Virus record (IMG/VR): IMGVR_UViG_3300034069_000436
Span: 1-41,085 of that record
Direction: 5' to 3' (one strand)
Source: a virus
DNA length: 41,085 nucleotides
The position numbers were made by a program, and so were the translations under genes. The notes under the pieces were generated by a model. The model saw only the letters and a list, made by a program, of their open reading frames with translations, did not search any database and was not told where the DNA came from. Shown piece after piece: positions 2,161 through 24,118 of the stretch (position 1 is the stretch's first letter; each line of letters begins with the position of its first letter).

Positions 2161-4382
2161 TTATCCAAATCTCCACCCTTGCGAAACGATGCAATCTTGG
2201 CCTCATGCGCCTCCGAGGCGTGTTGCACCCGCTGCTCATGCTCTCGCCCGGCAATCTCCAGCTTCACCTGCAATTCCCGTTCTGCAAGCGCGGCATCGGC
2301 GTTCTGCTGCCTCACCGCCAATTCCGCCTGTGCTTGCTGCTGCTGCTCGGCAAGGGCCTGCTTATGCTGCTGGGCGGCCTCGGCAAGACTGGCCGCATGG
2401 CTCGCCTTTTGCGTCTCCAGATCGCTTGCCGCCTGCTGTGCCTGCTGCTGGAGTTGCAGCTTGCTCATTGCCTGTTCGTGGTCCTGCTGCGCCTGCTGTT
2501 GCGCCAAGGCAGCCTTGCCCTGTGCCTCAATCGCCTTGGGGTCCTGCTTGGGCGGCTGACTCGCTGCTGCCTGTTGTGCTTCGGGAGTTGAAGGGTCGGT
2601 ATAGAACTCGTTGGGCGTCCCCAGCCCCATATCCCGAATGGCACCGTCGCGAGCCCGATACATGTTTTCAGGCGTCACCAGCGGCGATCCATTCTGAAAT
2701 AGCCCGTTCTGGTCCTCAATGAGCAACTGCCAATTCTGGATGCGCTGCGCCTTTTGGCCCGTCCCCAGTCCAACCCGCACCTCAACGGGCATGTCACCAT
2801 CCCATGCAGTAGGGTTCGCCTGCCGGTATTCCCCGTCTAGGCGCAGCATGATCGGATCGCCCTCCGCAATCATCAGCCGCATCTTCTTGGCAAACAGACG
2901 CCCGCAAGCGCCGCCGGCCTGCCGGGCAACATACTCCTCCATCTGTTGGCCTTGTGCCTGCATCATGGCAGTGCCGGTCGCCGTCTTGCTGATCGCGTCA
3001 GCGTCTAGACCTTGGTTGAGCCGGGTAATGCCCGTGCGGCTTTCACGTTCGCCGACAAGAAATTGGAGGAGACCGAGTCCTTGAGATGGATCAAAAGCGT
3101 CGGCGATAGCTTTGATCTCGCCGCCACCTTTGGTGCGAATAAGCACGCCGGGACCAGCCGTAAGCCAATCGTCGATGGTGCTTTCGCCAATGGCATTTTC
3201 GTCAATCTGCCCGCGTGGGCGATTGGTCAACATCACGCCGTCAATCGTCTGACGCGTCACCATCGTCCGCAACGCCTGAATGTCGGCTACTTTCTCGGCA
3301 AGGCTCTGGCCAACCATTCGATGCGCGCGAGGGAACGGGCAGAAAACGACAAACGGCTGCTCGTCAACCTCGCTGACTTCAAAAATTACGTCACCAACGC
3401 GCAAAACCTGCAACAGTTCGGCAATGCCATCGCCGTCACGGTCAGCACGGACATATTCTTCCAACAGCGTAACCTCGGCGAGCGGGCCGTCATTGTCCTG
3501 CGTGTCCCAGCTCTCACCCCAACGGGCAAGCGATCTGGGATCGCCCCACCATTCGGCTGTGGAATCTGCCGGCAAGTCATCGACCATGCGCCGGTCAAAG
3601 CCCATCTCAACAAGGTCGGAACGGGTTTTCCGACTTCGCTGAGCGATGTACGCGGCATCGTCCTCGTGACGCGCCCGCTGCGAAAAGATAAATTCCTCGC
3701 TCGGTACCGGCATGTCGATGTAACGCTTGCTCGACTGCGGCGTGTGAATACTTGCGGTAAAAGTGCCGTCACCGTGATCTTGCGCACCCATTAGCTGGGC
3801 GCCAGGCCGCTCCGGGTGCAGCCCAGCCGACAGTGCCGCTAGCTGTTCGCCATCAACCGTTAGCCGCTCACGTTTCGTCCGCCGCTTGGTGACGACAGCC
3901 GTTTTCACGATGCCGATCTTTTCGATCAAGCCCGACTGGATCCAGTCAATCAGCACCTTGAGGCCATCTTGGTCGTTCATGAAAGCGTGAGAAACCGCTT
4001 CGGTGGCTTCTCGCGCTGCCTCCTCCTGGCCCGGCTGGCGGGGAACAAACTCCACAATTCGATCGCCAGCGATGAACGTGCGCGCCACGCTGATCGTCAT
4101 GTAGTCGACTGTCTCCGCTACATCGGGAACGACGACTTGGCTTTGCCCCTCAACCTCGTTGCCGAGCGGGCGAGCGTCGTAATAGTCCAGTGCCGTTGCC
4201 TGTTCCTGAGCGAGTTGCGAGTTGCGAAACAGTGAGGCTTGGTCTTCCTCGCGCTGTAGCAGCGACAGTAGCGCGGCATCGTCCATGCCAAGTTGAGCCG
4301 GCTCCGTCGAGTCCTGCTCCTCCCATTGATGCGGAAGTGGAATGTTATGCGGATCACCAAGAACGGGAATGGGAACTGTCAT
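2157..4382 (-). CDS. Portal protein
   Basis: 741 aa, downstream of terL and upstream of scaffold/capsid. Globular core followed by a long Q/A/E-rich C-terminal helix (AQQQAQQDHEQAMSKLQLQQQAQQAASDLE...), reminiscent of P22-type portal barrels. Confidence 0.8.
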   Translation of the reverse strand: MTVPIPVLGDPHNIPLPHQWEEQDSTEPAQLGMDDAALLSLLQREEDQASLFRNSQLAQEQATALDYYDARPLGNEVEGQSQVVVPDVAETVDYMTISVARTFIAGDRIVEFVPRQPGQEEAAREATEAVSHAFMNDQDGLKVLIDWIQSGLIEKIGIVKTAVVTKRRTKRERLTVDGEQLAALSAGLHPERPGAQLMGAQDHGDGTFTASIHTPQSSKRYIDMPVPSEEFIFSQRARHEDDAAYIAQRSRKTRSDLVEMGFDRRMVDDLPADSTAEWWGDPRSLARWGESWDTQDNDGPLAEVTLLEEYVRADRDGDGIAELLQVLRVGDVIFEVSEVDEQPFVVFCPFPRAHRMVGQSLAEKVADIQALRTMVTRQTIDGVMLTNRPRGQIDENAIGESTIDDWLTAGPGVLIRTKGGGEIKAIADAFDPSQGLGLLQFLVGERESRTGITRLNQGLDADAISKTATGTAMMQAQGQQMEEYVARQAGGACGRLFAKKMRLMIAEGDPIMLRLDGEYRQANPTAWDGDMPVEVRVGLGTGQKAQRIQNWQLLIEDQNGLFQNGSPLVTPENMYRARDGAIRDMGLGTPNEFYTDPSTPEAQQAAASQPPKQDPKAIEAQGKAALAQQQAQQDHEQAMSKLQLQQQAQQAASDLETQKASHAASLAEAAQQHKQALAEQQQQAQAELAVRQQNADAALAERELQVKLEIAGREHEQRVQHASEAHEAKIASFRKGGDLDK

Positions 4383-17268: not shown

Positions 17269-17955
17269 ATGCCCGTTGAGAAGTTCGAAGTCCGCAACCG
17301 CTGGTCCAGTCGCATCCAGTTCACTGCCGAGATCACCTGCGCGCCCGACGCCACGATCGGCGTGAAGTTGGGGCTGGCAGTAAGGTGGGCGAGAAAGAGC
17401 GGTGCCGTCCTGCGCGGTGCCGACCTGAGCGGTGCCGTCCTGCGCGACGCCGTCCTGCGCGACGCCGTCCTGCGCGACGCCGACCTGCGCGACGCCGTCC
17501 TGCGCGACGCCGACCTGAGCGGTGCCGTCCTGCGCGACGCCGTCCTGCGCGACGCCGACCTGAGCGGTGCCGTCCTGCGCGACGCCGACCTGAGCGGTGC
17601 CGTCCTGCGCGGTGCCGTCCTGCGCGGTGCCGACTGGCTCCCGCGTATCACCAACATTCACCAGTCGATCTACAATGCCGCTCGCCAGGAAGGCGCCCTC
17701 GACATGGCATCGTGGCACCGTAATGGCTACTGCGGCACGACGCATTGCCGGGCTGGATGGGCGGTGGTGCTGACCGGCGAGGGCGGCCGGGTGCTTGAGG
17801 GCATCTACGGCACCAACGCCGCTGCTGCGCTGATTTATCAGGCCAGCGACCCAAAGCTGGAGCGTATCCCTAACTGGATCGCGTCAAACCAAGACGCGCT
17901 GGACGACATGCGGATGAAGGCGGAAGCGGAAGCTGCCTCTGCGGTCTCCTCATGA
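17269..17955 (+). CDS. Pentapeptide-repeat protein with a Cys/His-containing C-terminal domain
   Basis: Track ORF 17188..17955. Start at MPVEKFEV, preceded by AGGGAGGgcgcg. It carries 16 consecutive [G/D]A[V/D]L[R/S] pentapeptides. The C-domain motif is WHRNGYCGTTHCRAGWAVVL. Confidence 0.8.
   Translation: MPVEKFEVRNRWSSRIQFTAEITCAPDATIGVKLGLAVRWARKSGAVLRGADLSGAVLRDAVLRDAVLRDADLRDAVLRDADLSGAVLRDAVLRDADLSGAVLRDADLSGAVLRGAVLRGADWLPRITNIHQSIYNAARQEGALDMASWHRNGYCGTTHCRAGWAVVLTGEGGRVLEGIYGTNAAAALIYQASDPKLERIPNWIASNQDALDDMRMKAEAEAASAVSS
17401..17637 (+). repeat. In-frame 15-bp tandem array, about 16 units
   Basis: Units are GGTGCCGTCCTGCGC, GACGCCGTCCTGCGC, GACGCCGACCTGCGC, GACGCCGACCTGAGC and GGTGCCGACCTGAGC, counted consecutively from 17401. 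Several adjacent units are 15/15 identical. Confidence 0.95.
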
Positions 17956-17987
17956 CCCCTCCCATGGATAGAGGCGAGGGGCGGGAG
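17952..17987 (+). repeat. Junction module copy J1
   Basis: atgacccctcccATGGATAGAGGCGAGGGGCGGGAG. The last 24 nt are identical to J2 18791-18814. Confidence 0.9.
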
Positions 17988-18758
17988 ACGCGCTCCGGCA
18001 TCATTCGTGACATTGATGGCGTGCTGCACGTCGTCGCGCTCTCCGGTGGTCACGACAGCACCATCCTGTCATTGCTGCTGAACGAGCGCGAGCCGCGTCC
18101 GTACCTTCATGTCTGTACGCCGACTGGCGATGAGTTGCCGGCAATGTTTGAGCATTGGAACCGGCTTAGCGGGATGCTCGGCAGCCGTATTATGCCGATC
18201 ATGGCGGGAAGCCTCAAAGGCGTCATCAGCCAAAAGGGGTGTTTGCCCAATTTCCGCCGGCGGTTCTGCACCCGCGTTTTGAAGATTGAGCCTTTCCGCG
18301 CTTTCATGGCTGCACAGGCCAAGGATGGGCCGGTCGTCTCCTATGTGGGTCTGCGCGCTGATGAGCCGGGACGGGCTGGCGGCGCTTACGACAACATTCC
18401 CGGCGTCACAATTCGTTACCCTTTACGCGAATGGGGCATGGGCGAGGACGAGGTTCAGGCCGGCTTGGCTGAGCGCGGCGTCAAGTGCCCCGATCGGACT
18501 GACTGCGGTCTGTGCTATCACCAGCGCATCGGCGAGTGGTGGGAATTGTGGAAATACCATCCCGACCGGTTTGATGATGGGGTAACGATTGAACAGCGCT
18601 ACGGGGAAACGTTTCGCACGCCGGGGCGCGATAGCTGGCCCACGTCGCTGAAGGAAATGGGCGAACGCTTTGAGGCCGGCGACAAGCCGAACACCAGCCT
18701 CAATCGCATGGCTCGGGAGCGTCAGCAAACGGGCTCTTGTCGCGTGTGTTCGCTATGA
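17952..18758 (+). CDS. PP-loop ATP pyrophosphatase, PAPS-reductase-like family
   Basis: 268 aa. VVALSGGHDSTILSLLL is the SGGxDS PP-loop. ATGA overlaps at both ends. Confidence 0.75.
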   Translation: MTPPMDRGEGRETRSGIIRDIDGVLHVVALSGGHDSTILSLLLNEREPRPYLHVCTPTGDELPAMFEHWNRLSGMLGSRIMPIMAGSLKGVISQKGCLPNFRRRFCTRVLKIEPFRAFMAAQAKDGPVVSYVGLRADEPGRAGGAYDNIPGVTIRYPLREWGMGEDEVQAGLAERGVKCPDRTDCGLCYHQRIGEWWELWKYHPDRFDDGVTIEQRYGETFRTPGRDSWPTSLKEMGERFEAGDKPNTSLNRMARERQQTGSCRVCSL

Positions 18759-18814
18759 CCATCCCCACCCATTCAGCAGGATCAGACACCATGGATAGAG
18801 GCGAGGGGCGGGAG
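18755..18814 (+). repeat. Junction module copy J2 (longest form)
   Basis: atgaccatccccacccattcagcaggatcagacaccatggatagaggcgaggggcgggag. It shares its 5' block with J3 and its 3' block with J1. Confidence 0.9.
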
Positions 18815-19606
18815 GGTGCGCAGCTTCGTGTGCTGTCGCTGTTTGCTGGCATCGGTGGCTTCGACTTGGGTCTTGAGCGGACCGGCGAATTTCGCACGGT
18901 TGCCTTTTGCGAGATCGATAAACGTTGCCGGCACGTGCTGGCGAAAAACTGGCCTGGAGTGCCGATCTATGAAGACGTGCTCGACCTTAGTGCCCAGCAT
19001 CTCGCCGCAGCAGGAATTGCCATTGATGTCATCTGCGGCGGGTTCCCATGCCAGAACATCAGTCTTGCCGGACGAATGGAGGGGATTGGTGGCGTCAAGT
19101 CTGGACTATGGCAGCACTACCTTCGTCTCGTCGAAGAAGTCCGTCCGCGCTGGGTCGTTGTCGAAAACAGTCCCGTCCTTCGCTCTCGCGGATTGGAAAT
19201 CATGCTCGGGCAGCTTGCTGCGATCGGGTATGATGCGGAGTGGCACTGTCTACCCGTTAATGCCTTTGGCGCGCCTCACCGGCGGGATCGCCTCTGGATT
19301 GTGGCCTACCCCGCTGGCGACCGAGACGGGCTTCCGCCGCTCCAGATTTCCACAGGGTGGGACCAGTCTAAGCACCGCGCTTGGTGGGATACCGAACCCG
19401 CTGTGGGTCGAGTGGTTGATGCGGTTTCCGCCGAACCACACCGCCTTGCCGAGCTCGGAAACGCCGTCTGTCCGGTAATTCCGGAGGAGATTGGCCGGGC
19501 AATTCTAGACGATGCGTTTGACCGCGCTGTCCGGCGTCCTTGCCCTGGTTGTGACCGACCGAACTACGACCATCATTGGAATTGCGCCGCGCAGGTCGCC
19601 GCATGA
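18755..19606 (+). CDS. DNA (cytosine-5)-methyltransferase, compact form
   Basis: Motif I LSLFAGIGGFDLG. Motif IV GGFPCQNIS. Motif VI VVENSP. Motif VIII HRRDRLWIV. Motif X GNAVCP. The variable region is very short. An alternative start is at 18791 (MDRGEGRE, AGGA 10 nt upstream). Confidence 0.85.
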   Translation: MTIPTHSAGSDTMDRGEGREGAQLRVLSLFAGIGGFDLGLERTGEFRTVAFCEIDKRCRHVLAKNWPGVPIYEDVLDLSAQHLAAAGIAIDVICGGFPCQNISLAGRMEGIGGVKSGLWQHYLRLVEEVRPRWVVVENSPVLRSRGLEIMLGQLAAIGYDAEWHCLPVNAFGAPHRRDRLWIVAYPAGDRDGLPPLQISTGWDQSKHRAWWDTEPAVGRVVDAVSAEPHRLAELGNAVCPVIPEEIGRAILDDAFDRAVRRPCPGCDRPNYDHHWNCAAQVAA

Positions 19607-21314: not shown

Positions 21315-21667
21315 CCGACCTCAACCAGATCGCGGAGCTGCGGGGGCTGGTGGCGAAGGCGACCCAAGAAAACTTGGCGGATGGCGGCCGGTATTTCGCC
21401 GACAGCTACACCGACCTTACCCGCTGCCGACATGAAGAGATCGGCGAGTACCAAAACCGGCACGACGGCCCTGCCATCGAAGCGCTTTGGAATGCTCGTC
21501 ACGCCCTGCTGGATGCAGCGGAGAGGGTGGGGCGGCTGGAGGAGGCGGTTCGTGCCTATTGCGACGCCTTCGATGCCGGCACTGGAACGGTCTATGTCGA
21601 GCCGCTGATGCGCTCCCTCCTCACCGACACCACCCATGACACCGCTGAACACGGAGAAGGGGAATGA
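21311..21667 (+). CDS. Hypothetical protein
   Basis: 118 aa, with an ATGA overlap upstream. Confidence 0.55.
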   Translation: MTDLNQIAELRGLVAKATQENLADGGRYFADSYTDLTRCRHEEIGEYQNRHDGPAIEALWNARHALLDAAERVGRLEEAVRAYCDAFDAGTGTVYVEPLMRSLLTDTTHDTAEHGEGE

Positions 21668-21840
21668 GCGCGCTCGCAAACCGCCGATACCTCGTCCACA
21701 CGTGCCGAACCGTCCGTGGCGGGCAAATTCAACGCGCCGCCTATGGGCCATATTCGCGGTGGGGCGCCACCGCCCTGCGATGCTGGTTGGGCCTTGGCCG
21801 TAACGTGCGAGCATGGGTTGAGGGGATGGCTAGGGCATGA
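21664..21840 (+). CDS. Hypothetical 58-aa protein (below the track cutoff)
   Basis: My translation: MSALANRRYLVHTCRTVRGGQIQRAAYGPYSRWGATALRCWLGLGRNVRAWVEGMARA. ATGA overlaps at both ends. Confidence 0.4.
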   Translation: MSALANRRYLVHTCRTVRGGQIQRAAYGPYSRWGATALRCWLGLGRNVRAWVEGMARA

Positions 21841-22010
21841 CTGGAGAGTTTCGCATCATTCCGCCCGATGCGCGTGGATACCCTGGATTGACTGCGCTTA
21901 AGCTGACGGACGGTCGAGAACTAGCCGCAATGGGGGTAGGGGCAGAGGTGGAGCGCATGTTGGGCGACGAAGCTATTAAGCGAGTGAAAGGTGTGCATGA
22001 TGCTAGATGA
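21837..22010 (+). CDS. Hypothetical 57-aa protein (below the track cutoff), the last gene of the rightward operon
   Basis: My translation: MTGEFRIIPPDARGYPGLTALKLTDGRELAAMGVGAEVERMLGDEAIKRVKGVHDAR. Confidence 0.4.
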   Translation: MTGEFRIIPPDARGYPGLTALKLTDGRELAAMGVGAEVERMLGDEAIKRVKGVHDAR

Positions 22011-22066
22011 TCGTGCCACAGCAGCACCAGCGCACTTTCCCTACGCGCACCGAACGGTGGCTGAGG

Positions 22067-22312
22067 TCATGCCTCGCCTGAGGGGTATTCGAACGAAGGC
22101 GTCTCCCCCGTCACCCAAGCCAGATACGCATACGCCGTCGTCTGAAGGTGAAACGTCGGGCTGATCCGCTTGCACTGGCTGTCGGGTTCTTGTCCCGGTA
22201 GCTGGACACGCACGCACCAACGCTGGCCGTAGCCGTCCATATCGACAAAGACTCGGCCGCCGGGTGGGATACGCGGCGGTTCGCGCCCCACCAAACGGCC
22301 GAGCCAGCCCAC
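22067..22312 (-). CDS. Hypothetical protein (accessory island)
   Basis: 81 aa. The start overlaps the upstream stop by 1 nt. Confidence 0.5.
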   Translation of the reverse strand: MGWLGRLVGREPPRIPPGGRVFVDMDGYGQRWCVRVQLPGQEPDSQCKRISPTFHLQTTAYAYLAWVTGETPSFEYPSGEA

Positions 22313-22623
22313 TACAGCTTGCCTGTCGTCGCCAGTTTCTCGGCTTCAGCGATGATTTCCGGCCAGTGCGCGGTGATCGTAGCCTGCGCGAGGTGAAGCG
22401 CCATGCTGGTCGAAAGATTCACGCCCTTCACGTCCGCGACCAGCTTCTTCGCCTGATTGGCGAGCGCGAGCAGCGAGGCAAACTCGTCGGGTAGCGACTT
22501 GCTGAATGCGGCGAGATCGTCACCGACAACGGGCAGGAGGTCGGACACCACCTTCTCGGCGGCGGTGAGATTGTGACCGCTGAAAAGGTGGCCGAGCGAC
22601 TTGAAGAACGAACCGATGCTCAT
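22312..22623 (-). CDS. Hypothetical helical protein (accessory island)
   Basis: 103 aa, with plausible composition. Confidence 0.55.
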   Translation of the reverse strand: MSIGSFFKSLGHLFSGHNLTAAEKVVSDLLPVVGDDLAAFSKSLPDEFASLLALANQAKKLVADVKGVNLSTSMALHLAQATITAHWPEIIAEAEKLATTGKL

Positions 22624-22635
22624 GGGATGCTCCTT

Positions 22636-22863
22636 CTATGCGGTGATGGCCTTGACCGCCCACATGACGGCTTCTTCGGTCTTGGTCTTGGCGATAGACA
22701 GTTCGCGGCCACTGCCAGCTTTGGCGATTAGGTCAAGCATGTGTGCGCCCGCATCCTTGATGGCCACCATCTGCGCCTTCTCGTCGTCGGTTAGGACGCG
22801 ATACTGATGGCGAACGGCATTGTTGGCAGTTCGTTCGTCTGATTCGCTGTCTACGTCAGTCAT
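22636..22863 (-). CDS. Small helical-hairpin protein, possibly of the Acb2/Tad1-hairpin-like family (a candidate signalling-nucleotide sponge)
   Basis: Track ORF 22636..22998 trimmed to MTDVDSE at 22863, preceded by AGGAGcatctc. The motif pattern is YRVLTDDEKAQMVAIKDAG...GRELSIAKTKTEEAVMWAVKAIT. The family assignment is from memory of this motif only, with no search run. Confidence 0.45.
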   Translation of the reverse strand: MTDVDSESDERTANNAVRHQYRVLTDDEKAQMVAIKDAGAHMLDLIAKAGSGRELSIAKTKTEEAVMWAVKAITA

Positions 22864-23020
22864 GAGATGCTCCTGTGATGCTGCGATTGACGTAGCATAC
22901 GGACAGGCCCATGAACAGGGAGCCGGGGTCAGGTTGGAGCCTGCCCCGGCGGACAACGCGGTTGGGCGCGCTGCCACAATGAGGTGGCTACACGGCACAG
23001 CCGCTCCGGTAAAGGAGCGA
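22864..23020. promoter_or_regulatory. Divergent intergenic region of the accessory island
   Basis: 157 bp between divergent starts at 22863 (-) and 23021 (+). Contains TTGACG (22887-22892) and an imperfect hairpin, gccggggtcagg-ttggag-cctgccccggc (22922-22950). Confidence 0.35.
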
Positions 23021-23362
23021 ATGATGGAAACGATGGCAGCTTACGCGATGGGTGCGGTTAATCGCGGCAAGGATCTCATGGTCTTTGATTGGGATAAGGC
23101 AGCCGAACGCATTGCGGTAGCCCGCCCGTTAGAAGCTAATGCCGGGTTAAGCGGGGACTGGGAATTTACGGGCGGCCTGATTTACCGCAATGGCGCTCCT
23201 GTGCCCCGGGAGAGCACGTATACGTATTTGGCAAGCACTTGGGCTAAGCCAGAGTTGGAGATGGATGGCGTATTGGAGGATTGCTACAGAATGCAGTCTG
23301 ATACACCGGGCTGGGACAGTGAAACTTTTTGGCCGGAAACTGCCTTAGCATTACTTGGCTAA
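23021..23362 (+). CDS. Hypothetical protein, a lone rightward gene
   Basis: Track ORF 22820..23362 trimmed to the ATGATG at 23021, preceded by AAAGGAGcga. 113 aa. MVFDWDKAAERIA...GLSGDWEFTGGLIYRNGAPV. Confidence 0.6.
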   Translation: MMETMAAYAMGAVNRGKDLMVFDWDKAAERIAVARPLEANAGLSGDWEFTGGLIYRNGAPVPRESTYTYLASTWAKPELEMDGVLEDCYRMQSDTPGWDSETFWPETALALLG

Positions 23363-23373
23363 TTAACATTATA

Positions 23374-23396
23374 ACCGGCGGCGCGTAAGCCGCCGG
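23374..23396 (-). terminator. Intrinsic terminator at the end of the late/lysis operon, shared with convergent gene 23021..23362
   Basis: CCGGCGGC-gcgtaa-GCCGCCGG: 8-bp GC stem directly after the minus-strand stop at 23397. On the minus strand it is followed by UUAUAAUGUUAAUUA. Confidence 0.7.
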
Positions 23397-23669
23397 CTAC
23401 TTCGCCACCGCCACCTCATTCGGCACGCGCGGGTCATTAGCGATGTTGGCAAGCTGCGTCGCGCGGTGGCGGGTCTTTAACTGGCCCCACACAATGATGG
23501 CACCACCGCCGACCATGCCGAGCATCGTTGCGGTGTCGCCTTCGATCCAATGGCGGCCTAGCGCAAAAGCAATGATAGCCGTGGTCATCTGCCGTACACC
23601 GGACCAAAGCTGATCTGGCAATGGTGATGCGCTGACCTCAATCTGTGGCGTCTCGTTGTCGTCGCTCAT
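23397..23669 (-). CDS. Membrane protein of the lysis cassette
   Basis: Track ORF 23397..23897 trimmed to MSDDNETPQ (ATGA overlap with the endolysin stop). Two hydrophobic segments: MTTAIIAFALG and MLGMVGGGAIIVWG. Confidence 0.55.
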   Translation of the reverse strand: MSDDNETPQIEVSASPLPDQLWSGVRQMTTAIIAFALGRHWIEGDTATMLGMVGGGAIIVWGQLKTRHRATQLANIANDPRVPNEVAVAK

Positions 23670-24118
23670 GGCCGCTTCCCTGTCTCGATCGCCGTAATTA
23701 CCCGCGAAGCGCGAGCCGGTGTTTGTTGCTTCGCCCACTTGGATTGGCGCAGGTTGGCAGCCGCGCCGCGCCAGTCCCCCTTGGCGATACACGCAAAGGC
23801 GTTGGCGAAAACCTCGTCCGATCCGGCGCCTAGCTGGAACTGCATGTTGAGGATGGCGGCCAGCCTCACAGCGTCGCCACGCACGGCGGAATACCACGGC
23901 TCCTTCTGAACACCCGTCAGCAGCAGCTTGAGCCGGTTAGCGTCGATGAACGACATTTCCTCGGGCAGCAGACGCCCGCCTTTGCGACGATCAATCATGA
24001 TGCCTCGGCCGATGGTCCAATAGCCCAGCGAGTCCTGATAGGCGTAGGGGATCGTTCCCTCATCGCGGTCTAGGTCGGTGTCGGCGTAGGCTAGGGCCTG
24101 TTGTTCGGTGGGGGTCAT
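23666..24118 (-). CDS. Endolysin, T4-lysozyme-like (GH24) muramidase
   Basis: Track ORF 23666..24277 trimmed to MTPTEQQALAY at 24118. Motif: DRDEGTIPYAYQDSLGYWTIGRGIMID. Confidence 0.8.
   Translation of the reverse strand: MTPTEQQALAYADTDLDRDEGTIPYAYQDSLGYWTIGRGIMIDRRKGGRLLPEEMSFIDANRLKLLLTGVQKEPWYSAVRGDAVRLAAILNMQFQLGAGSDEVFANAFACIAKGDWRGAAANLRQSKWAKQQTPARASRVITAIETGKRP

Follow-up and report, generated by a model that had tools for sequence, protein, structure and literature searches.

Gene A, a 75-aa reading frame in the window (the whole stretch of 41,085 nucleotides of viral DNA analyzed here), clearly belongs, at the sequence level, to the known Acb2 family, whose phage-encoded members bind up bacterial alarm nucleotides. 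It probably encodes a short-form Acb2-family sponge carried as a stand-alone mobile cassette, with the adjacent genes B, C, and D inherited separately and not as parts of one system. The family membership of A, together with its retained Acb2 ligand-contact residues, argues that the window holds a putative counter-defense gene. The last rightward gene ends at 22010, and the four genes lie between this position and the hairpin at 23371-23400, in agreement with the original prediction, which had located the region between the end of the early operon and the late terminator. The features of the region are as follows.

22067-22312, minus strand: gene C, 81 aa, GTG start
22312-22623, minus strand: gene B, 103 aa (ORF coordinates checked)
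22630-22634, minus strand: ribosome-binding site of B, AGGAG, read from the sequence
22636-22863, minus strand: gene A, 75 aa (ORF coordinates checked)
22864-23020: spacer of 157 bp separating the divergent start codons of A and D
22870-22874, minus strand: ribosome-binding site of A, AGGAG, 6 nt ahead of the ATG at 22863, read from the sequence
22922-22950: imperfect hairpin in the A-D spacer, 7 + 4 base pairs with a one-base bulge
23013-23017, plus strand: ribosome-binding site of D, AGGAG
23024-23362, plus strand: gene D, 112 aa (113 aa from the alternative start at 23021)
23371-23400, minus strand: terminator hairpin of the late (lysis) operon, from a terminator scan and folding

All four reading frames are present at the positions originally given, and each has full-length relatives, identifying them as real genes. 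The layout of the proposed three-gene leftward mini-operon is also borne out. A, B, and C are spaced in an operon-like manner, with 12 nt between the stop codon of A and the ATG of B, an AGGAG site ahead of the start of each of these two genes, and an overlap (TAGTG) between the stop codon of B and the GTG start of C. The frame of D is present as predicted, but its start is more likely 23024 than the proposed 23021, since the AGGAG lies 6 nt from the ATG at 23024 and just 3 nt from that at 23021, and its relatives begin at the second methionine.

Family assignment and predicted ligand pockets of gene A

The original prediction had assigned the product of A to the Acb2/Tad1 helical-hairpin family from a sequence pattern that A matches exactly, and the domain scan it proposed for the 75-aa protein bears this assignment out. 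The Pfam model PF24729 (Acb2/Tad1 hairpin) matches with an E value of 5.6e-20 and a score of 71.7 bits (curated cut-off 27), and its positions 2-57 of 58 align to residues 21-74, which correspond to the hairpin domain. The relatives of A form at least 1575 clusters, mainly from phages and prophages of Alphaproteobacteria, and PF24729 is found in all 120 among the matches listed. A search of the PDB with a profile of 59 relatives retrieved Acb2_43 (9PTQ; E 6.6e-5), T4 Vs.4 (7UQ2; 8.5e-4), PaMx33 Acb2 (8H2J; 0.003), and Tad1 chains (0.013). The alignments to the solved Acb2 chains are weak (E 6.6e-5 to 0.003), and beyond the Acb2/Tad1 chains the same profile produced weak, unrelated chance matches at E >= 0.25.

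The residues of A fall into a common register with those of PaMx33 Acb2 (Y21 = Y11, L24 = L14, K36 = K26, R53 = R67, and T60 = T74), on which the single-sequence and profile alignments agree. Conservation among the 59 relatives is nearly complete at these positions, with Y21 and K36 each found in 58, L24 and R53 in all 59, and T60 in 56. By alignment, A retains the tyrosine and lysine of the cyclic dinucleotide pocket of Acb2 (Y21 and K36) as well as the arginine and threonine of its cA3 pocket (R53 and T60). In PaMx33 Acb2, the tyrosine stacks on the base and the lysine contacts the phosphate in the cyclic dinucleotide pocket; dinucleotide binding is lost in the Y11A and K26A mutants, while cA3 binding is lost in R67A and weakened in T74A (PMC10312549). 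The cA3-pocket residues R67 and T74 vary across the family. In A, Y21, L24, and K36 are accordingly aligned as a predicted cyclic dinucleotide pocket, and R53 and T60 as a predicted cyclic trinucleotide pocket.

Preceding the hairpin domain, and outside the Pfam model, is an N-terminal extension of 20 residues with a nearly invariant motif (S6, D9, R11, N14, N15, R18, and H19), each position of which is conserved in 53-58 of the 59 relatives. Given this extension and the absent middle region, the shape of the pockets could differ from that of known Acb2 proteins; an unlikely possibility is that the invariant motif gives this branch of the family a new ligand. The branch appears to be a compact 75-aa form that has kept both putative Acb2 pockets, lost the middle segment, and gained the N-terminal motif. 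Such compactness would make the branch well suited, as a minimal form, to dissecting the portions of Acb2 that di- and trinucleotide binding requires.

In the proposed mechanism, A would form an interlocked homo-hexamer, as the solved Acb2 proteins do, and its inter-subunit pockets would bind and sequester, without cleavage, CBASS signals, namely 3'3'-cGAMP-type dinucleotides and probably also cA3. The host effector would then stay inactive, allowing the phage to escape abortive infection. A would represent one more Acb2-type sponge, which leaves the current view of phage counter-defense unchanged. Close relatives of A in public databases are already labeled "Acb2/Tad1 domain-containing protein".

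Comparison of gene A with characterized sponges

The Acb2 proteins of PaMx33 (p26; PDB 8H2J, 8H2X, and 8IXZ) and JBD67 share with A the PF24729 domain, two long antiparallel helices, and a layout as one small gene acting alone, and the tyrosine/lysine and arginine/threonine pairs of the two PaMx33 pockets align with A. A comprises 75 aa compared with 93-94 aa in PaMx33 and JBD67 Acb2; relative to the PaMx33 protein, it is missing 24 residues from the middle as well as the C-terminal tail with P90, and its N-terminus is 10 residues longer, with the conserved S..D.R..NN..RH. The sequence match between A and PaMx33 Acb2 remains weak (profile E 0.003). The Acb2 protein Vs.4 of phage T4 (89 aa), a hexamer that binds 3'3'-cGAMP (PMC10312549), shares motifs with A in both helices: Y-(K/R)...A-I-K-D-A in helix 1 and I-A-K-T-K-x-x-E-A-x-M-W-A in helix 2. 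Its inter-helix region is longer than that of A, and it lacks the cA3-pocket arginine that is present in A (PMC10312549). The similarity to Tad1 (PDB 7UAV and 8KBE-8KBH) is confined to the C-terminal hairpin helix, where profile positions 47-74 of A align to Tad1 residues 80-111, the last helix only (E 0.013). Tad1 proteins are 123-138 aa long and possess an N-terminal domain forming the gcADPR pockets, whereas A, at 75 aa, has no such domain and is therefore not a Tad1.

The best PDB match of the A profile, Acb2_43 (76 aa), is a minimal two-helix form near A in length, and it raises the alternative that A is an Acb2-family sponge tuned to 3'cADPR, a Thoeris signal, or to some other signal outside CBASS, with the N-terminal extension serving as a pocket wall. 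[quoted passage not shown] Its pocket is built by an N-terminal beta strand (T4, H5, L6, and V7), and A carries its nearly invariant motif at the N-terminus; K19 and K55 of Acb2_43, which contact the diphosphate, align with K36 and K71 of A. Among 46 Acb2 homologues tested, most inhibited CBASS and 10 inhibited Thoeris (bioRxiv 10.1101/2025.08.24.671296); no members of the A branch were found in the accessible part of the record of tested homologues. TIR domains are also encoded in host genomes: of the five that carry prophage copies of A relatives, two have both SMODS (CD-NTase) and TIR domains, a finding that likewise counts toward the CBASS reading. We nevertheless consider a non-CBASS ligand unlikely. 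The base-stacking position is a tyrosine in A and in 58 of the 59 relatives, whereas threonine is expected there in Acb2_43, a comparison for which the register was extended one residue back beyond the printed alignment. Moreover, A retains the arginine and threonine of the cA3 pocket and, unlike Acb2_43, has the Y-R-x-L and A-I-K-D motifs of the CBASS binders PaMx33 Acb2 and T4 Vs.4. The motifs of the A subfamily were not found in the accessible portion of a table of 84 tested sponges in a sponge-screen preprint supplement; likewise, neither these motifs nor those of the D family were found in the accessible portions of the supplements of two such preprints, an absence that carries little weight.

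Genes B, C, and D and the A-D spacer

Searches of Pfam, PHROGs, and NCBIfam with B, C, and D produced no match. B has 16 relatives; in related phages it closes the lysis cassette as a conserved gene that follows the holin-like gene (L082, L153, L156, and L157). Its structural model (pLDDT 84.6) contains five helices, suggesting a helical-bundle protein, and a Foldseek comparison of this model with the PDB yielded no fold match (best E 1.5). C is a member of a small, real family of ~80-aa proteins, with 23 representatives at E <= 1e-3 that align from residue 1 to the end. The composition of its frame follows GC3 > GC1 > GC2, and a pattern scan of IMG/VR returned no relative. The gene located 3' of B in the related phages was considered as a counterpart of C and proved not to be homologous.

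D belongs to a much larger family of at least 476 clusters, all annotated as "hypothetical" and devoid of Pfam assignments; Pfam and PHROG scans of 59 relatives, one by one, gave no match. The protein is acidic (pI 4.3; family median 4.4) and Trp-rich, and family members are 50-68% identical across phages of 28-64% GC. GC3 of the gene is 0.57, compared with 0.66-0.81 in its neighbors. The alpha/beta model of D (pLDDT 86.6) matched no PDB structure in Foldseek (best E 1.9), and a BFVD search with D retrieved uncharacterized proteins only. D could be the first representative of a counter-defense family not yet described, inserted next to acb2 in a hot spot for cargo and acting by signal sequestering or nucleic-acid mimicry, an idea we regard as unlikely. 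The hairpin of the late terminator lies 9-13 nt past the stop codon of D, on the other strand. It has a folding energy of -23.8 kcal/mol on the minus strand, is followed by an A/U-rich tail, and lies immediately next to the holin-like gene's stop codon.

The spacer between A and D measures 157 bp and contains the imperfect hairpin, both as originally described. The hairpin folds stably, with energies of -23.2 to -24.7 kcal/mol and z scores relative to shuffled sequences of -3.1 to -3.4. It is present in a single copy in the genome, and an Rfam search over 21900-23500 gave no match. The spacer shows no DNA similarity to other loci, and its words that recur elsewhere in the genome are of chance-level length, except for one 11-bp inverted match. 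The further claim of an own divergent promoter region was not confirmed: a sigma-70 scan of 21600-23800 detected no promoter site, and a relaxed scan returned one weak candidate (8/12) on the plus strand, TTGACG-17-CATGAA at 22887-22915, and none on the minus strand, the direction of A. When the inserted genes were compared with a moron, a cassette of promoter, gene, and terminator with atypical composition, D showed its low GC3 and the hairpin terminator just beyond its end but no promoter other than this weak candidate, and A showed no promoter.

Genomic context and probable mobility of gene A

The surroundings of A are not shared with its relatives. B, C, and D are absent near A relatives in 80 IMG/VR loci and in the full set of 116 loci from IMG/VR and genomes, and no conserved neighbor was detected among these 116 loci. 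DNA similarity of A to other loci is limited to its ORF, and in Sinorhizobium phage Aussie the A homologue is flanked by the genes for the head-tail adaptor and the stopper. The related phage L153, which has neither A nor D, shows 79% DNA identity from 22635, the base after the A stop codon, through B. Two of the relatives have nothing in the slot that separates the lysis cassette from B, one has a 59-aa gene there, and another has a tRNA-Leu; here the slot contains the terminator, D, and acb2. A and D are insertions ahead of B, and the comparison gives a clean picture of the slot as a cargo hot spot. A would accordingly be seen as acting alone, a mobile single-ORF cassette inserted just ahead of B in an accessory-gene hot spot that extends from the lysis cassette to the end of the early operon. 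A megablast search of the region against GenBank phages gave no match, a tRNA scan across the whole window detected none, and no integrase or repressor was found by PHROGs among the other window ORFs.

These observations bear on the original proposal of an anti-defense island, which survives for A as a predicted counter-defense gene and not for its neighbors. A single coordinated four-gene island, transcribed from two divergent promoters within the spacer and with B, C, and D also directed against host defense, might be suggested by the small, closely packed genes at a module boundary and by the low GC3 of D, which is typical of acquired cargo, as well as by the acidity of D and its strong conservation across phages of very different GC. 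This arrangement is very unlikely, however. B, C, and D accompany A in none of the 116 loci, and relatives of A or B occur in none of 34 D loci; in four related phages from which A, C, and D are missing, B has a fixed place as the final gene of the lysis cassette. Furthermore, B, C, and D match no anti-defense or other family, B and D match no solved sponge structure, the D-family motifs were not found in the accessible part of the supplement of a structural sponge screen, and no convincing promoter emerged from the scans. It is more improbable still that A has the hairpin fold without being an immune-signal sponge, for example as a structural or regulatory late protein: its relatives often reside within late structural operons, directly after large ORFs of ~550-750 aa, after lysozyme genes, or in the adaptor-stopper gap, but their genome position is wholly unconserved and thus fits a virion part poorly, the four Acb2 ligand-binding residues are the most conserved positions, and every characterized protein with the Acb2/Tad1 hairpin domain is a sponge.

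The prophages that carry A relatives were also considered as copies of the same phage, which would have indicated its host. Their portal proteins are just 24-31% identical to that of the present phage, showing that they are different phages. The host is probably an alphaproteobacterium, as judged from the occurrence of relatives only.

Gene content and setting of the island

The island, originally predicted to be a stand-alone counter-defence locus, is bounded by the last rightward ORF (ending at 22010) and a terminator at 23371–23400. The window, a complete virus record of 41,085 bases, carries direct terminal repeats at its ends, and the lysis cassette forms the end of its leftward late block. 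The relevant features are as follows.

left end of the window, minus strand: terminase, portal and scaffold genes (family scans)
within the window, minus strand: primase and HNH genes (family scans)
about 12.3–22.0 kb, plus strand: rightward block with an exonuclease, a PAPS-reductase-like gene and a C5 cytosine methyltransferase (family scans)
22067–22312, minus strand: gene C, 81 aa, relatives found by phmmer
22312–22623, minus strand: gene B, 103 aa, 16 relatives
22636–22863, minus strand: gene A, 75 aa, at least 1575 relatives at the 90% cluster level
23021–23362 (start more likely 23024), plus strand: gene D, at least 476 relatives
23371–23400: hairpin terminator adjoining the stop codon of the holin-like gene
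23397–23669, minus strand: holin-like 90-aa gene of the lysis cassette
23666–24118, minus strand: Phage_lysozyme gene of the lysis cassette (family scan)

All four ORFs of the original prediction are located where it placed them and are real genes, with relatives found for each. For gene D, the ORF stands but its start moves from 23021 to, more likely, 23024, because of the AGGAG spacing and because the relatives begin at the second methionine. An AGGAG motif lies 6 nt 5' of the ATG in both A and B, and the gene B stop overlaps the start of gene C. The packing of A, B and C thus looks operon-like, as proposed for a leftward mini-operon. The 157-bp spacer between A and D and its hairpin are likewise real (folding energy of −23 to −25 kcal/mol, z about −3.1 to −3.4). 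The divergent promoters attributed to this spacer were not recovered: a consensus scan of the island region detected no sigma-70-like site, and a looser scan yielded a single 8/12 candidate, which would serve D; A had none. Rfam gave no match in the island region.

Approximately 2.5 kb upstream of the island, a PAPS-reductase-like gene and a C5 cytosine DNA methyltransferase gene overlap (17952–19606, plus strand), the first running into the start of the second. The former matches PHROG 424 (E 2.9e-29), with a Pfam PAPS_reduct score slightly below the cut-off, and the latter matches Pfam PF00145 (E 9.7e-40). This pair may constitute a DNA-modification or anti-restriction module.

Family identity and candidate ligand of gene A

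Residues 21–74 of gene A match the Acb2/Tad1 hairpin domain, Pfam PF24729, with E 5.6e-20 and a score of 71.7 bits, where the cut-off is 27 bits. A profile built from an alignment of 59 relatives from IMG/VR and genome loci was searched against PDB sequences. The top match is Acb2 homolog 43 (9PTQ, 6.6e-5), followed by T4 Vs.4 (7UQ2, 8.5e-4), PaMx33 Acb2 p26 (8H2J/8IXZ, 0.003) and, over the last helix only, Tad1 chains (0.013); beyond the Acb2/Tad1 chains, this search returned only noise. Gene A is not a Tad1 protein, as it is too short and lacks a counterpart of the Tad1 N-terminal domain.

The single-sequence and profile searches place gene A in an identical register with PaMx33 Acb2, in which Y21, L24 and K36 correspond to Y11, L14 and K26 and, after a 24-residue gap in gene A, R53 and T60 correspond to R67 and T74. 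In PaMx33 Acb2, cyclic dinucleotides are held by Y11, through base stacking, and by K26, through their phosphates, and the Y11A and K26A mutations both abolish this binding; in a second pocket, R67 and T74 hold the cA3 phosphates, and cA3 binding is abolished by R67A and weakened by T74A (PMC10312549). The gene A counterparts are among its most conserved positions across the 59 relatives (Y21 and K36 in 58 each, R53 in all and T60 in 56). The original assignment of the 75-aa protein to the Acb2/Tad1 family is correct, with both profile and residue-level evidence behind it. By every feature that its sequence allows to be tested, gene A is placed in the Acb2 family, as an ordinary member of a known family that can already be named, and its product would be expected to form a hexamer and bind a ligand.

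Since specificity varies within the Acb2 family, the form of gene A and its N-terminal motif matter. Compared with PaMx33 Acb2, gene A is a minimal 75-aa form without the middle segment, similar in length to Acb2_43 (76 aa). Its first 20 residues form an N-terminal extension that the Pfam model does not cover; this carries a nearly invariant motif, in which S6, D9, R11, T12, N14, N15, R18 and H19 are each present in 53–58 of the 59 relatives. The main rival to a CBASS-directed protein is one tuned to a Thoeris-type signal: among 46 Acb2 homologues tested, most inhibited CBASS and 10 inhibited type I Thoeris, and Acb2_43, whose N-terminal strand forms the pocket wall, binds 3'cADPR and not cGAMP (bioRxiv 10.1101/2025.08.24.671296). 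However, when the profile register is extended back by one residue, gene A has Tyr where Thr is expected in Acb2_43, and it has the Y-R-x-L and A-I-K-D motifs that also occur in the CBASS-signal binders PaMx33 Acb2 and T4 Vs.4. The Tyr position and these motifs favour cyclic-oligonucleotide (CBASS) signals as the probable ligands. The motifs of the gene A branch did not appear in the accessible portion of the tested-protein table of that preprint.

Gene A as a mobile cassette and the island as a mosaic

Relatives of gene A with 50–85% identity were found in at least 136 IMG/VR contigs and 36 genomes. Most of these genomes are alphaproteobacterial, with Rhizobiaceae, Sphingomonas, Methylobacterium/Methylorubrum, and several marine genera of the roseobacter group and others represented. 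Among the matches listed, public databases label them either "Acb2/Tad1 domain-containing protein" or "DUF7681 family protein". Across 116 loci, no neighbour is conserved; the upstream genes include large unidentified ORFs of about 550–750 aa, lysozymes and others, and in Sinorhizobium phage Aussie the homologue lies between the head-tail adaptor and stopper genes. Because it lacks a conserved neighbour and its DNA similarity to other loci ends at the ORF boundaries, gene A is a self-contained single-gene cassette, like known Acb2 genes. Two of five host genomes with prophage copies of its relatives carry SMODS and TIR domain genes; signalling defences therefore exist in this host range.

A 68%-identical relative is found in Dunaliella viridis virus SI2 (HQ332136.1/NC_023841.1, 17440–17655; 37 kb, phage collection), which suggests that this record is a bacteriophage of a bacterium from the algal culture. 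Some A-type ORFs run on without a stop (120–241 aa) or are N-terminally extended (L064:3998-4675, L080:3992-4714, L138:3001-3360 and L037:3052-3432); these may be sponge-domain fusions or read-through into neighbours, or may be artefacts of simple ORF extension.

Gene A belongs to the Acb2 family as predicted, but no link of B, C and D to it was found: none of the three stands beside a gene A relative in 80 IMG/VR loci, and none of 34 gene D loci contains an A or B relative. In each of the four gene B relatives, out of 16, whose context was readable, B comes immediately after the holin-like gene, reads in the same direction and closes the lysis cassette. It holds this place whether the endolysin is of the Phage_lysozyme type or of the GH108 type with PG_binding_3. 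The content of the slot separating the lysis cassette from B differs from phage to phage.

L082 and L157: 5 bp
L156: 59-aa gene
L153, a related 41.8-kb phage: tRNA-Leu(UAA) at 3858–3941 (minus), on the opposite strand
window: terminator, D (other strand), spacer and A

The flanking genes of L153 and the window share 70–79% DNA identity, and the L153 match through B starts at 22635, one base beyond the gene A stop codon. The gene following B varies among relatives and shows no homology to C. Given the variable slot, the start of the L153 match and the variable gene after B, A and D have been inserted at a cargo hot spot ahead of an ancestral late gene, B, which weakens the notion of a purpose-built divergent unit. 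Where the gap is only 5 bp, as in L082 and L157, the lysis genes and B are most probably read together.

The L153 tRNA occupies the slot position of gene D; the window contains no tRNA. An 11-bp inverted repeat (22978–22988 and 23410–23420; AATGAGGTGGC and its complement) flanks gene D and the terminator. Its right arm lies within the last codons of the holin-like gene, the chance expectation of such a match is about 0.03 within 500 bp, and the repeat may mark a recombination scar or be coincidental. The start regions of A (22861–22874, minus; AGGAGCATCTCATGA) and B (22621–22634, minus; AGGAGCATCCCATGA) are near-identical, so that a direct repeat encloses the A ORF. The upstream sequence is missing at other A loci, and locus L151 has GCATCCCATGA just 3' of its A homologue; the repeat may be a footprint of cassette insertion.

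Genes B, C and D

The gene B model is a confident helical bundle (pLDDT 84.6) without a match among PDB folds (best E 1.5), and its location suggests that this helical, non-membrane protein may have a function linked to lysis. Gene C appeared to lack relatives in IMG/VR by pattern scan; an exhaustive phmmer search retrieved 23 representatives of 69–90 aa, aligned over the full length, and two longer multi-stretch matches. Its GTG start is supported, since relatives reaching the N-terminus begin at its first residue, and its codon-position GC is compatible with coding in that frame.

Gene D encodes an acidic protein (pI 4.3; family median 4.4) with 25 invariant positions, five of which are Trp. 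Fifty-nine family members, scanned singly, matched nothing in Pfam or PHROGs. The family resides in phages of 28–64% GC. Cultivated Stenotrophomonas phages have it too, under the label "hypothetical protein". Its usual neighbours are early genes, by eye resembling thymidylate synthase (ThyX), PAPS reductase and adenine methyltransferase. The GC3 of gene D (0.57) is below that of its neighbours (0.66–0.81), which identifies it as recent cargo. A counter-defence role is possible but unsupported. The confident alpha/beta model (pLDDT 86.6, pTM 0.77) had no match among PDB folds (best E 1.9) and matched only two uncharacterised proteins in BFVD. One of these, A0A481YUK2 (90 aa) from the metagenomic assembly Marseillevirus LCMAC103, shares the fold at E 6.7e-5 (TM 0.53–0.64, 24% identity), reflecting either a broader viral spread of the D fold or phage DNA binned into the assembly.
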